Of a DNA stretch of 64,000 bases, positions 1-64,000 are shown piece by piece. Under the pieces are notes generated by a model, which worked only from the letters and a program-made list of their open reading frames with translations, had not been told where the DNA came from and made no database searches. Each line of letters opens with the position of its first letter. Positions within the stretch are counted from its first letter, which is position 1. Source of the stretch: a virus. Where the stretch lies: the IMG/VR virus record IMGVR_UViG_3300030228_000019; one strand, given 5' to 3'. Made by a program: the position numbers and the translations under genes.

Positions 1-167
1 ATACTGCAATACAAATCAAGAAGTGTATTATTTTGTAATTTATAAATGTCTGTTGGCTTAACCATTACCTGTGCATCAATTAATGTTTTTATTAAATCAA
101 AAAATTCATTTTTTGTCATTTTATCAATAATTATTATAAAAAGAATGTTTAAAATAAAAAACAAATA

Positions 168-175
168 TTTAAATA
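168..175 (+). promoter_or_regulatory. Archaeal TATA box (TTTAAATA) upstream of ORF 207
   Basis: TTTAAATA about 30 nt before the ATG; the same motif lies 20-35 nt upstream of starts at 21145, 29521 and 30887. Confidence 0.55.
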
Positions 176-206
176 TATAAAATATTAATATTATAGTATT
201 GATAAT

Positions 207-839
207 ATGGCTGGAATTAAAACAGTTTTGCTCATTATTTTAATAGTGGCAGTAATTTTTGCATATTTGTATATATTTCATCCAAGTTATATTGGTAAAA
301 AATTAACAACTACTACTGTTTTACCATCAAATAATACAATAACTAATGCCTTTAATAATTATACAACAACAGCAGAAAAAGAATTTAATGTTTCTAATTC
401 AAGTGTTGTTTCAATTTTGCCAAACAAAGAACCCTATTTATTAAATGAGGTTCTTGAGTCTAATCCCAACCCAATACTTATTATCAATTATACTTATAAT
501 GGAAAAATATATCAGTTACCACAATGGTTTTCTCTATCATTTTCAAATGTAACAGCAAATCTTCCAAATTTTAATGGTCAACATGTTCAATTTTTATTTT
601 TTATGAACAAAACAGCAGCAATAAATTATACTGGAAATCCAGCTAATAGCACACCAATGATATTTAACTACAGTGTTGCTGTGAATGGAACTACTTATAA
701 ATTTACATTTATAAATAATAAAAATAATAAAATAATATCTGTCCTTTCAATTCCATTTAATAAACATCAAGTATTTTATACAATTGGTTTTGAATATAAT
801 AAAACTGTTTATTTAATTCCAGACATAGCAATTGGTTAA
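207..839 (+). CDS. Membrane-anchored secreted protein
   Basis: N-terminal TM helix; Asn/Thr-rich with many N-x-S/T sequons. Confidence 0.8.
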   Translation: MAGIKTVLLIILIVAVIFAYLYIFHPSYIGKKLTTTTVLPSNNTITNAFNNYTTTAEKEFNVSNSSVVSILPNKEPYLLNEVLESNPNPILIINYTYNGKIYQLPQWFSLSFSNVTANLPNFNGQHVQFLFFMNKTAAINYTGNPANSTPMIFNYSVAVNGTTYKFTFINNKNNKIISVLSIPFNKHQVFYTIGFEYNKTVYLIPDIAIG

Positions 840-844
840 TAAAA

Positions 845-3800
845 TTATGTTCTAACATTTTCATATAATGCATAGCCATTAATTGATGAGCCAGATATTG
901 ACCTTGTTGAACTTTCAAGAATATACTCAGATTTTGATATATATAAAAGGTTTGTAGTTCCATCATTATTTACCAGTTTGGTGTTTGCAAACCCTCTAAT
1001 ATAAGCATCAGTTTTACACACCTTATTATTACAAAATCCATATGATACACCACTTGGTTCAGAAGGAATTGTTGTATTGAAAGTTCCTGGTGCTATACTG
1101 ATTTGTGTGGTGGTATTATATATAATAATTCCAGCAACTTGTGAATCAGCTACTCTTTCAGGGGTTCCACCTATAATACCACAACTATGATAAAAATTCT
1201 TTGATGTTATAAGATAATTATATAAAGATTGATACTGGGTGACAAAATTGTTGCAAGTGCTTGGTGGTGAATCAGTAATATTTATATTATAACTTTCAAA
1301 TATAGGAACAGTATAACCATAAAATAAATTAAAGGTAGCTGGTTCCACTGGTAAAATTGAATAACTATTTGATAAATTAAAAAAAGTATCATAGCCTGGT
1401 CCTATATTTAAATTTTGCAGAGATTGTATTGTAACAAGTGGTGTATAACCAAATGTTTTAGTATATGCAGAGATTCCTGTGTTTCCACTAGGACCATTAA
1501 TGTCATAATTAGCAGTTCCATTTGAAAATAATGCTGTTGAAATAAGACCACTTTTAGTTACAGTTGAAACCTGTCCATTAATATTTCCAATAACTAAACA
1601 ATTATCAAGTATTCCAGAATCATAACATTTTGTATAATTTCCATTATTTGAAATTGTCTGTGAACTTGAAACAAAATGATTATTATTGGTGTTGTAAAAT
1701 CCTTCTGTTAGGGAGTATGTGGTTCCACTATACAAGTTAATATATTTAGAAGGGGCTGGTAATACAAAAAGATGTTGTGTGGCTATACTTGTGTTTTTTA
1801 TATAACTGCTATCAAAAGAAGTAAAGATGGGACCACCTGTAATATTATAAGGAACAGTTGTCCATCCAAGTGTTGAAAAACTATAAGGTTGACCAACTAA
1901 ATTTGTTGTTATATTTAGTGGAACAAGGTAAATTGCAATTATAGTATAATTATTTTTATCTGACAAACCAGATATTGTTTTACCAGTTACACCAGAAATT
2001 ATTTCATTTTTTATACCACTAACATATGTTTTTGTTGTATTATCATAAATGGTTAATAAATAATTTTTATTTTTTAAATAATTTGAATAATAAAATTTTA
2101 CTGGATTAATATCTATACTATATATTGTTGGTGAACCCTCTAAATAATAAGTTGTTATATTTGTATATGGTTCACTGGTATTAACTGTTGTATAACCAAA
2201 ATTAGTAGAAACAGCATGAGGAATTAATGAAATATCACCAATACTATCAGGATAGTTATACACAGTGATTGTTCCTGTTGATTTTATTATTTTATTAAAA
2301 AGCACTGATACATTTACAGATATAGTATCAATATATGTTTTATTTATTTTTGGATAACTTTGATTAAACAAGATTGCTGCTTCTTGTTCTGTTATATTAA
2401 TTGGTAAAGAAGTTGTTGATGTTGGTGGTGCTTTGTTTGATTTCAAAACTGTTCCATTTTTTAAATAATATGTAAATTGTATTGTGCTTTCTGGTAAATT
2501 TATTGAATAATTTTGTGAATTATATACAAATTTGTTTTTTGTATTTATATAAAAATATGTTGTATTATCACCAGGTATATCTTGGAATATAGCACCATTT
2601 GAATTTCCATACACTGGGTCAAAACTGTTACCCCAGTTTGAATGTGCAGACACCTGATAAAATGAAAAATTATCATTACCACTGTTTAATTCAGGATTTG
2701 AATACATTTCTATTTTTCCAGCATTATTTATATAAACAGTCAAATTATTTATATTTAAATTTGATGTTGTAAGATTATTAGCAACTGCTGTTGGATAAAT
2801 ATCTGATATTAACACATTTTTCCAAGCAGCATTTAAATACCCTGTTCCTGTCACATGACAGTTATTTCCACTGCACCCACCAGTTCCACCACCAGTGGGT
2901 GGAGGTGGTGGTATTACATGATAGTTTGCTATTATTGTAACATTTTGGCAACCATTAAGTGCTTTCCAATTGTAATTAAAACTTTCTGAATTAGAATTTG
3001 AAATTTTATCACCATTGCAATAAACATTTTGTGATACAAAACTTCCACTGCTTGAAGAGGTTGCTGCAAATGTCCATGTAAATCCAAATGTTGTATTTAA
3101 AGTATTAGCTGAAAATACATTTGTTTTATTAAATGTAAAAGTATAAGGTGTTGCTGTATTTGTTTGATTAGACCAGCCTATTAATGAATTTGTTGGTATT
3201 GCATTTGCTGAAAATGTTGTTGAAACACCACCTAAATTACTGGTTGCTTCCCATGAAATTGTTGGTAAACTAATCTTGAAATTAGCAGTATAGTTTGTTG
3301 CATTTACAACAGTAAATGTATAAGGATTTTGTGTTATTGTTGTTCCAGCATGGGTCCAATTACTAAAAGCATAATATGTATTTGCATTTCCAGTTATTAT
3401 TACTGATTTTCCTTTTGGAACAAATTCACTAATATTATTTCCTGTTATAGTTTTATTATTATATGGTGTATATATACTAACATTTCCTCTTGAACTATTT
3501 GAAGTTTTTACACTAATATTATATTCATATTCATAATCAGCTTGTAAGGTGCAGGGTGCAAATGATAATGATTTAACTGTTTGTGATGGATTAAACAAAT
3601 TAAATCCAGTTGAACATGATAATGAAACAGATGTGTTAAAATCAACAAATGCTAATGCTTTGGTCTTTGTTTTTGTTAAAATAGCAGGATAATTAAAAGA
3701 ATAAGGTGCTGCATCCTGATACATTGTATATGGTAAATTTCTTACAGATTGTTGAATACAAAATCTTGAGGCATCAACACCACAAGTAATATTTGTATCA

Positions 3801-62555: not shown

Positions 62556-62676
62556 AAAAGATAAAAACTTTTTATTAAATTGGTTTGCAGTATAGCAATT
62601 GATTATTATAAAGCTAAATTTAATAAATTAAAAAAGTATCTGTAATTTTAAATTAACACATTGTCTTATTTTATGA

Positions 62677-63060
62677 GTGACACCAGTGAACTCTTTCAAA
62701 AAACATCAGTTTATAAAAAGCATATTTGAAACAGTTACCATTGGTGCTGCTTTAATTAGTATATATTTGTTTTTAATAACAAATTTTGTAAACATAGGAT
62801 TACCAATTGTTATTATTACTATTATATTTTCTTTCATTATTTTTATGGCAATTATTTTTGTATTTTATAGCAACATAACAATTGAATGGTATAATTTTAA
62901 AGAGGAAATTGAATTTGAAATATCATCTTTAAAAACCACAAAATTATTTCTAAAAACAATGATAGAATTTTCTCAAAAGCCAAGACTTAAAAAAGAGTTA
63001 AAAAAAGAGATAAAAGAAATAAACAGCAATATCAGAAAATTGAATAAAAAACTTATTTAA
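62677..63060 (+). CDS. Two-TM membrane protein
   Basis: Two hydrophobic helices and a basic coiled tail. Confidence 0.65.
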   Translation: MTPVNSFKKHQFIKSIFETVTIGAALISIYLFLITNFVNIGLPIVIITIIFSFIIFMAIIFVFYSNITIEWYNFKEEIEFEISSLKTTKLFLKTMIEFSQKPRLKKELKKEIKEINSNIRKLNKKLI

Positions 63061-63326
63061 ACAGAGGAAGACTTTATTTGACTCCAATATGGGTTTTCAT
63101 CAGGTTTTACAGTTTTTATTCCATCAAAAAGCAGTTTTTCAATTTTTGAATAATCAATTTCAATATTTTTCTTTCTTAAAGATTCAACTTCAATAACAAG
63201 AGGTTCAACCAGCCAATCTTGATAAGTATTTTGGTGTAAGTTCATTTTTAGGTTTTTATTTATTTTTTTTGTAACATCTAAAAGTCTGTTTATTTCTTTA
63301 TCTGGTCCATTATTCATAAAAGTCAC
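63057..63326 (-). CDS. Hypothetical protein
   Basis: 89-aa ORF. Confidence 0.55.
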   Translation of the reverse strand: MTFMNNGPDKEINRLLDVTKKINKNLKMNLHQNTYQDWLVEPLVIEVESLRKKNIEIDYSKIEKLLFDGIKTVKPDENPYWSQIKSSSV

Positions 63327-63431
63327 ACAATACTATTGTATTATTAAATATTTATATGTTTCAGTTTTCACTAAAACACTTTAATACACAGTTGTATGGT
63401 ATTAGAGCAACAAACAGAAAAAAATAAACAA

Positions 63432-63998
63432 TTAGTCAAATATTTTTTCTAATATTACTTGTATTTCTTTTTCTCCTTCTGTTTCATTATATATATTTTT
63501 TATTTCATAATCAAATGGAAGGCTGTCTATTTCAGTTTCAGTTGGGTCATTAAGTTCAATTTCTGTTGGTTCTCTTCCATATATTTCCTTATATTTTTTT
63601 ATTCTATTTTTAATATCAGGACTTATTTTAACAACAAATAACTTTCTTTGTGTGTTTCCTGTATATAAAAGATATGAAAGTTCATTCATAAATCTAACAT
63701 CATCAACTATAAAAGGAAATTGTTTTTTTGTTGCAATACTGGTTGCAAGATATTTTATCCAAACATCAGGGTCAATTTCTCTCATTTTTGAACCAAGTTG
63801 CTGCAATAATCTTCTGTTTTTTTCCTTCATACCAAAAACATCTTTTGCAACATCTTTTAGTTTTGCTGCTATTGAAACTTTATAAGCTGTAATACCTTGC
63901 TTTTCTAATTCTTCTTTTAATTTATCAGCATAATATGTCTTTCCAGCAGCCATGTGTCCTATAAAAACTACTCCATCATATTTTATTTGTTTATCCAT
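63432..63998 (-). CDS. Phage-type deoxynucleoside monophosphate kinase
   Basis: GHMAAGKT, A.KLK, RRLLQQLG..MR..DPDVWI, IVDDVRFMNE. Confidence 0.82.
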   Translation of the reverse strand: MDKQIKYDGVVFIGHMAAGKTYYADKLKEELEKQGITAYKVSIAAKLKDVAKDVFGMKEKNRRLLQQLGSKMREIDPDVWIKYLATSIATKKQFPFIVDDVRFMNELSYLLYTGNTQRKLFVVKISPDIKNRIKKYKEIYGREPTEIELNDPTETEIDSLPFDYEIKNIYNETEGEKEIQVILEKIFD

Positions 63999-64000
63999 TT

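Follow-up and report, generated by a model that had tools for sequence, protein, structure and literature searches.

In this study we show that the dinucleotide CG is completely absent from a 64,000-bp stretch of DNA (IMG/VR virus record IMGVR_UViG_3300030228_000019, positions 1-64000; hereafter the window) and from the whole closed circle of 118,835 bp of which the window makes up 54%. An earlier note, made from the letters of the window, had claimed that no CG occurs where about 1,000 would be expected. Direct counting bears this out: 0 CG were found against 1,041 expected from base composition, all other dinucleotides lie at 0.80-1.33 of expectation, and GC (1,295), CC (1,453) and GG (1,235) are as common as had been stated. 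When the count is extended to the rest of the circle (25.7% G+C), CG is still absent, with 0 against 1,958 expected, or 1,929 if expectation follows local composition, and the upper 95% bound of the observed/expected ratio is 0.0015. The absence of CG is hence solid and extreme. As to its cause, we lean, if only slightly, towards the view that the circle belongs to a clade of pilus-bearing replicons of archaea, probably DPANN, that measure about 120 kb and encode an endonuclease with a 2-bp target (CG), descended from a relaxed ACGT cutter, and that a CG-free genome would be their only self-protection, just as phages with orphan members of the same enzyme family would use an ACGT-free one.

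The loss extends over every class of sequence. The six tRNA genes of the circle contain 0 CG against 21 expected and the 2.4-kb non-coding region at 37000-39430 contains 0 against 40. In coding sequence the codon count gave no CGN codon, no NCG codon and no NNC|GNN junction, as the earlier note had deduced; the two T loops it quoted, TTCAAAT and TGCAAAT, are both present, but TTCAAAT is a variant often met in tRNAs and, taken alone, weak evidence. With tRNA genes and non-coding DNA likewise at zero, the cause must work on the sequence itself, and an origin in codon usage or translation is ruled out. C-N-G, occurring 2,719 times, is not depleted, which identifies the exact dinucleotide as the target. 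Exact look-ups with proteins of the window retrieved the same sequence (>99.8% identical), again with CG = 0, from JGI and Logan assemblies that are independent of each other, which rules out an assembly artefact; together with the local-composition expectation this also disposes of compositional chance. The run accessions (SRR3590xx) probably belong to acid-mine-drainage biofilms of the Richmond Mine. Among 125 single-nucleotide polymorphisms (SNPs) between assemblies of the element none creates a CG, against 17.8 expected (P ~2e-8). All ten C/G transversions among the SNPs change a reference C to G, and in nine of them the next base on the + strand is T.

Methylation-driven decay normally leaves a residue, and the zero found across coding sequence, RNA genes and non-coding DNA, in three lineages (see below) and among strain SNPs points to selection against each single site. 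Mutational erosion, by which CG would be methylated by an enzyme of the M.SssI/M.MpeI type or hit by a CG-context deaminase and would decay to TG/CA faster than it is regained, might explain why enrichment is highest for the dinucleotides CA and TG (1.32 and 1.30) and why the NCA codon share is 0.62-0.67 compared to 0.45-0.57 in CG-normal relatives. However, a gain of CA/TG is expected under selection as well, and CC/GG are raised too (1.25). An observed/expected ratio below 0.0015 would moreover require a loss:gain ratio of several hundred or more. Deamination of 5-methylcytosine typically leaves CG at ~0.2 of expectation, but neither residual nor newly arising CG was seen here (0 of 1,958; 0 of the ~18 expected CG-creating SNPs), and no C5 methyltransferase was found on the element. 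Codon-context tests did not separate deamination from selection. All in all we regard erosion as very unlikely. The earlier note had suggested active counter-selection by a nuclease or modification system of the host or of the element itself: counter-selection rather than passive deamination is supported by the zero count, the three lineages and the SNPs, and a self-encoded candidate nuclease exists, although the cause may also lie in the host.

The candidate is the product of the open reading frame (ORF) at 19442-20116. It matches no Pfam, NCBIfam or PHROG family, and its family has no relevant sequence match in the PDB. A model of the protein reached a predicted local distance difference test score (pLDDT) of 96, compared to 34 for a fold prediction from its sequence alone. 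This model aligns to Hjc with Z 8.3 (root-mean-square deviation 3.0 over 116 residues; Foldseek probability 1.0), to I-Ssp6803I with Z 7.3, to MspI with 6.3, to ThaI with 5.9 and to DpnI within 5.5-6.3, values that are evidence of fold only. With its alpha/beta core present in the model, the product is predicted to belong to the PD-(D/E)XK nuclease superfamily. The putative catalytic residues E87, D121 (of the PD), E134 and K154 are shared by 93-99% of 121 relatives and intact in the element's enzyme; the catalytic Lys is displaced from the canonical ExK position. Other residues conserved in the family are changed, namely E75Q, Y76M, D138G and D149A/S, and the Trp of a D-x-x-x-x-W motif after D138 is lost. 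Orthologues with 61% and 57% identity carry the same replacements, which would fit an enzyme that no longer contacts the outer base pairs. Precomputed Pfam assignments, Pfam scans, a motif search and tblastn revealed no methyltransferase on the circle, and the enzyme is hence taken as an orphan endonuclease and not as part of a restriction-modification (R-M) system. A self-encoded CG methyltransferase was likewise not found, the sole NPPY motif of the element sitting in a pilin-like protein.

What the enzyme might recognise is suggested by its homologues. There are none in the 401 Bacteroidota and 401 Desulfobacterota genomes searched, and the only one in a named record lies on the Thermus plasmid pTCCB09 (hidden Markov model (HMM) E 2e-20). 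There it stands head-to-head with a DPPY-type site-specific methyltransferase, by its genes a Type II R-M layout, of which this is one example only. IMG/VR scans found homologues on 18 distinct phage contigs (L279-L312); many of them are near-identical, and the independent count is six lineages with <40% identity. All 18 contigs lack ACGT, also far from the nuclease gene (0 against 764 expected in 452 kb), and retain CG in other contexts (ACGA, ACGC, ACGG, GCGA). Among control viral loci 1 of 77 lacks ACGT (Fisher p 2e-8 for 6/6 against 1/77), and this phage (L244) has no nuclease homologue in its 55%-complete record. Beside the six phage homologues inspected no methyltransferase-sized ORF with motifs was seen; in the five phage records tested, all records being partial, no N6/N4 methyltransferase was found, and C5 methyltransferases occur in only one, where ACGT is not spared. 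Taken by itself, the link between nuclease and ACGT loss in phages is a strong result. From the zero in all carriers we infer that the family most likely cuts ACGT and that its mobile carriers purge this word from their own DNA. ACGT contains CG, the missing word of the element being the core of the missing word of the family. Three of the carrier phage records additionally lack CGCG.

The analysis also revealed an apparently undescribed family of replicons, comprising the element, L274-L277 and L034-L041. It is defined by 15 further PolB clusters (40-61% identity) on contigs of up to 138 kb, and its members are archaeal replicons of roughly 100-170 kb with their own PolB, primase, TopoVI, Mre11/Rad50, VirB4-like and type IV pilus (T4P) ATPases and many prepilin-like proteins. 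Two sister lineages are also free of CG: L274 (PolB 61% identical) with 0 against 226 expected and L275-277 (PolB 54% identical) with 0 against 438. Together with the element they form one PolB clade with support 100/100. In the syntenic relatives L034-L041 (PolB 43%) CG stands at 0.68-0.94 of expectation and ACGT is normal. In shape the nuclease subtree (P0269-P0274, with P0276 as sister) is similar to the PolB tree, and nuclease P0276 and PolB P0148 each lie on a contig of 138,381 bp, an indirect link between nuclease orthologues and PolB lineages. A second match, at 11,314 bp, would place a P0276-type enzyme, with D138 kept, in a CG-free L275-like lineage, and may be coincidence.

A possible hypothesis as to how CG was lost is the following. 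The solitary restriction-type endonuclease would descend from an ACGT-recognising family and, in the lineage of the element, would have lost discrimination of the outer A:T pairs, so as to cut CG in any context. As no methyltransferase accompanies it, any CG arising in the element would be a lethal cut site and selection would keep CG at zero. The benefit could be that CG-containing DNA of the host, a recipient or rival elements is cut, with the products recycled by dCTP deaminase, nucleotidases, nucleoside diphosphate kinase, P-loop kinase, DEDDh exonuclease and Mre11/Rad50. That the enzyme relaxed from ACGT to CG and so forced the total loss of CG while cutting DNA of hosts or competitors seems to us reasonably probable; here we infer, besides the cleavage of ACGT by the family, the relaxation itself, the expression of the enzyme and its biological purpose.

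Several observations weigh against this hypothesis. We know of no two-base restriction endonuclease, and the replacements would be just as compatible with an enzyme that is inactive. Identity between the phage homologues and the enzyme of the element is only ~25-32%, and the former make up a separate clade in a quick tree. The nuclease HMM found no copy in the loci of the sister lineages or of the CG-normal relatives, which cover only the PolB flanks. Furthermore, in one assembly (L018) position 18,090 of the element, which falls within a gene of 1,127 aa, is joined to DNA of 42% GC with 104 CG, and a second assembly (L015) ends at exactly the same base. The joined DNA (L018:18091-20918) carries a short IS200/IS605-like hairpin and Tsp45I endonuclease and methyltransferase. 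The junction may reflect a chimera, an insertion or an integration, the site of which would reveal the host; if it is real, the element could, at least temporarily, be connected with CG-containing DNA. Finally, GATC, GTAC and GGCC are as absent as CG, and host enzymes could thus explain CG too.

This last point deserves closer consideration. On the circle GATC (0 of 164 expected), GTAC (0 of 117), GGCC (0 of 38), GATATC (0 of 22) and CCWWGG (0) are missing, and the window likewise lacks all five, which the earlier note did not mention. The first four are missing throughout the CG-free clade, whereas CATCC, CTTAC, CTAG, CTCAG, GCAGC and CCWWGG are lineage-specific absences; besides the clade-wide words L274 and L275-277 lack such words as CATCC, CTAG, CTCAG and GCAGC. 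In L034-L041 the only shared word absent in all is GGCC, which is missing from every examined member of the replicon family. Two candidate ORFs (36286-36996 and L033:7001-7699) gave no nuclease in Atlas searches, the latter product resembling a SprT-like metallopeptidase, and a self-encoded explanation for GATC, GTAC and GGCC was thus not found. As these three words are described among the common and persistent archaeal R-M and methylation motifs in a survey (PMC10609329), are equally absent and are explained by no gene of the element, host enzymes clearly shape its genome.

CG might then have been removed by a host-encoded defence as well, either through a CG-specific R-M system or, in some hosts, through the joint action of a CG methyltransferase and a modification-dependent nuclease; the element's own nuclease would then still be an ACGT cutter or idle. 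The absolute avoidance of further motifs, both clade-wide and lineage-specific, is the classic pattern of host R-M avoidance in prokaryotic viruses (PMC6286503). However, the available part of the archaeal REBASE survey lists no two-base CG motif (PMC10609329), and a host origin would have to treat as coincidence or as an ancestral step that the element encodes a methyltransferase-less nuclease whose family's mobile carriers all lack a CG-centred word. We consider host defence the main rival, possible and worth keeping in mind, yet unlikely. The joint removal of CG by many host four-base cutters (ACGT, TCGA, CCGG, GCGC, CGCG, CCGC) appears far less credible. Phages can indeed drop several words at once, as does G011, which lacks ACGT, AGCT, CCGG, GATC and TCGA together, but G011 still keeps CG at 0.8 of expectation. 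At the element's composition the classic palindromes cover only ~1/3 of NCGN contexts, and ACGA/TCGT and similar non-palindromic contexts are zero in the element, which largely excludes this explanation.

The circle was tiled, for counting only, from overlapping loci of several assemblies, and contigs of 116,406, 116,446, 116,617 and 118,155 bp that begin at different points indicate its circularity. It encodes PolB, a PriX-family primase, a TFB-like zinc ribbon protein, Mre11/Rad50, topoisomerase VI A and B, FEN1, an Hjc-like resolvase, helicases and six tRNAs, and for transfer and pili VirB4-like, HerA/FtsK-like and T4P ATPases and nine ORFs with class III prepilin-like N-termini. As in archaeal conjugative plasmids, VirB4-like and coupling-like ATPases occur with membrane and pilin genes; general annotations contain no relaxase family, and no search aimed at relaxases was made. 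No ribosomal genes were recognised on the circle, and no HK97 capsid, portal or terminase appears in precomputed Pfam assignments or Pfam/PHROG scans, in which many ORFs lack an assignment. Neither IMG/VR scans nor the named phages yielded close relatives of the element. Judged by its genes it is an archaeal self-replicating extrachromosomal element, plasmid-like, though it might be a virus of an unusual kind. Among named cellular TopoVI-B proteins the nearest come mostly from Micrarchaeota, plus Hadarchaeales (~36%), and PolB relatives are binned in metagenome-assembled genomes of Micrarchaeaceae, Saccharolobus and Conexivisphaerales; the host is therefore likely a DPANN archaeon. A GTDB scan with PolB returned only distant PolBs of bacterial genomes.

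Features of the window are listed in the following table.

Features of the 64,000-bp window (positions of the window; strand as + or -)
Feature	Position	Strand	Basis or remark
Candidate orphan PD-(D/E)XK restriction-type endonuclease, possible CG cutter, 224 aa	19442..20116	+	model, fold matches, 189 relatives
Transfer module	5688..16209	.	VirB4/TraG-like ATPase 5688-8690; HerA/FtsK/coupling-like ATPase 11613-14267; type II secretion system (T2SS)/T4P ATPase 14284-16209; membrane proteins
FEN1 flap endonuclease, archaeal type	16204..17172	-	PF00752, PF00867
Hjc-like Holliday junction resolvase	22981..23475	-	PF01870, weak
tRNA-Lys, CG-free	32418..32493	+	
Nucleoside diphosphate kinase	35421..35960	-	PF00334 among scanned proteins; matched to ORF by its sequence
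tRNA-like gene and tRNA-Leu(CAA), CG-free	36114..36272	+	
Non-coding region	37000..39430	.	nested inverted repeats 37906-38294
HAD-type ORF similar to deoxyribonucleotidase	44155-44688	-	motif only
Nmad1/DUF1599 nucleotide-modification-associated protein	52867..53457	+	PF07659
5'(3')-deoxyribonucleotidase	54404..54994	+	PF06941
dCTP deaminase/dUTPase family, nucleotide recycling	58526..58999	-	PF22769, PF00692
DEDDh exonuclease	61109..61795	-	PF00929
P-loop kinase, probably dNMP kinase (inferred)	63432..63998	-	PF04275 match

The presence of Nmad1/DUF1599, PAPS-reductase-family and nucleotide-metabolism genes on the element might also suggest that a base modification linked to Nmad1, or packaging or transfer, is incompatible with CG. 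However, no recognisable base-modifying transferase was found, and modification normally relaxes site avoidance (PMC6286503), yet the element avoids many sites; we think this explanation highly improbable. The repeats of the non-coding region have arms of 51-66 nt nested around a central palindrome, and the region is possibly a replication origin. Another long non-coding stretch is found around 96,700-98,600 of the circle. The tRNA-like gene at 36114-36184, directly upstream of tRNA-Leu, has an undeterminable anticodon, and the T-arm, GGTGCAAATCC, is atypical in both Leu tRNAs. Low-complexity surface or pilin-like proteins of very large size (738-1,772 aa; DUF2341, Flg_new_2) are encoded at 845-4591, 23672-28696 and 49667-52891 and at 109,240-118,466 of the circle, and strain SNPs are dense in some of them. 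Toxin-antitoxin-like genes (two Fic, a DUF6036 nucleotidyltransferase, an AbiEii pair) occur at 29747-31949 and at 90,194-91,064 and 96,198-96,656 of the circle, and a PQ-loop (SemiSWEET-like) transporter is carried by this mobile element at 33300-33587. Two unannotated, weakly paralogous proteins (circle 67,924-69,342 and 76,723-78,228; ~27% over 175 aa in relatives) lie on either side of the replication module and are conserved across the CG-free clade.

If the element indeed encodes a CG cutter, CG would be the shortest target of any restriction-type endonuclease known to us, and the element would represent a natural genome-wide recoding driven by its own enzyme. It would also provide a one-family example of specificity relaxation, from ACGT to CG, that could be mapped to few residues. 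CpG methylome work would directly profit from such an enzyme, provided that methylation blocks it. Independent of the CG question, we describe a nuclease family without annotation which, where it occurs in phages, predicts that ACGT is lost completely, and missing words might serve as a general way to infer specificity and self-protection.

In literature searches of incomplete coverage we found neither the element nor any prokaryotic replicon free of CG described, and no endonuclease specific for CG. Among known systems, MaeII, TaiI/TscI and HpyCH4IV are Type IIP endonucleases recognising ACGT. The nuclease family resembles them in its predicted PD-(D/E)XK fold and length of ~220-260 aa, in the Thermus homologue paired with a methyltransferase, in the ACGT-free phage carriers and in an Atlas cluster that includes Methanobacteriota. 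In contrast, the element has no detectable methyltransferase, lacks all CG and not just ACGT, and has motif residues replaced. Identity with one of these enzymes is a lead. PacI and PmeI are methyltransferase-less endonucleases with 8-bp sites, protected by the absence of the site. The element would equally protect itself by having no site in its own genome; however, its proposed site is 2 bp, with ~1,960 positions to purge, and theirs is 8 bp. Virus-encoded nucleases against host DNA are known as EndoII/EndoIV with gp46/47 in T4 and as R.CviAI/CviJI in chloroviruses, where T4 is self-protected by hydroxymethyl-C and chloroviruses by methyltransferases. Here too a mobile element would combine a short-site nuclease with Mre11/Rad50 and nucleotide recycling genes, but it is apparently protected by purging its sequence, and no capsid gene was recognised. 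In Mollicutes M.SssI/M.MpeI and in eukaryotes DNMTs or ZAP cause a partial CpG depletion. It affects the same dinucleotide with an excess of TG/CA, whereas the loss in the element is absolute and concerns an archaeal replicon without a C5 methyltransferase. Finally, the element shares with prokaryotic viruses the avoidance of restriction sites (PMC6286503), fully excluding GATC, GTAC, GGCC and several 5-6-mers. That survey covers longer sites of host enzymes, however, and a dinucleotide combined with a self-encoded enzyme lies outside it.

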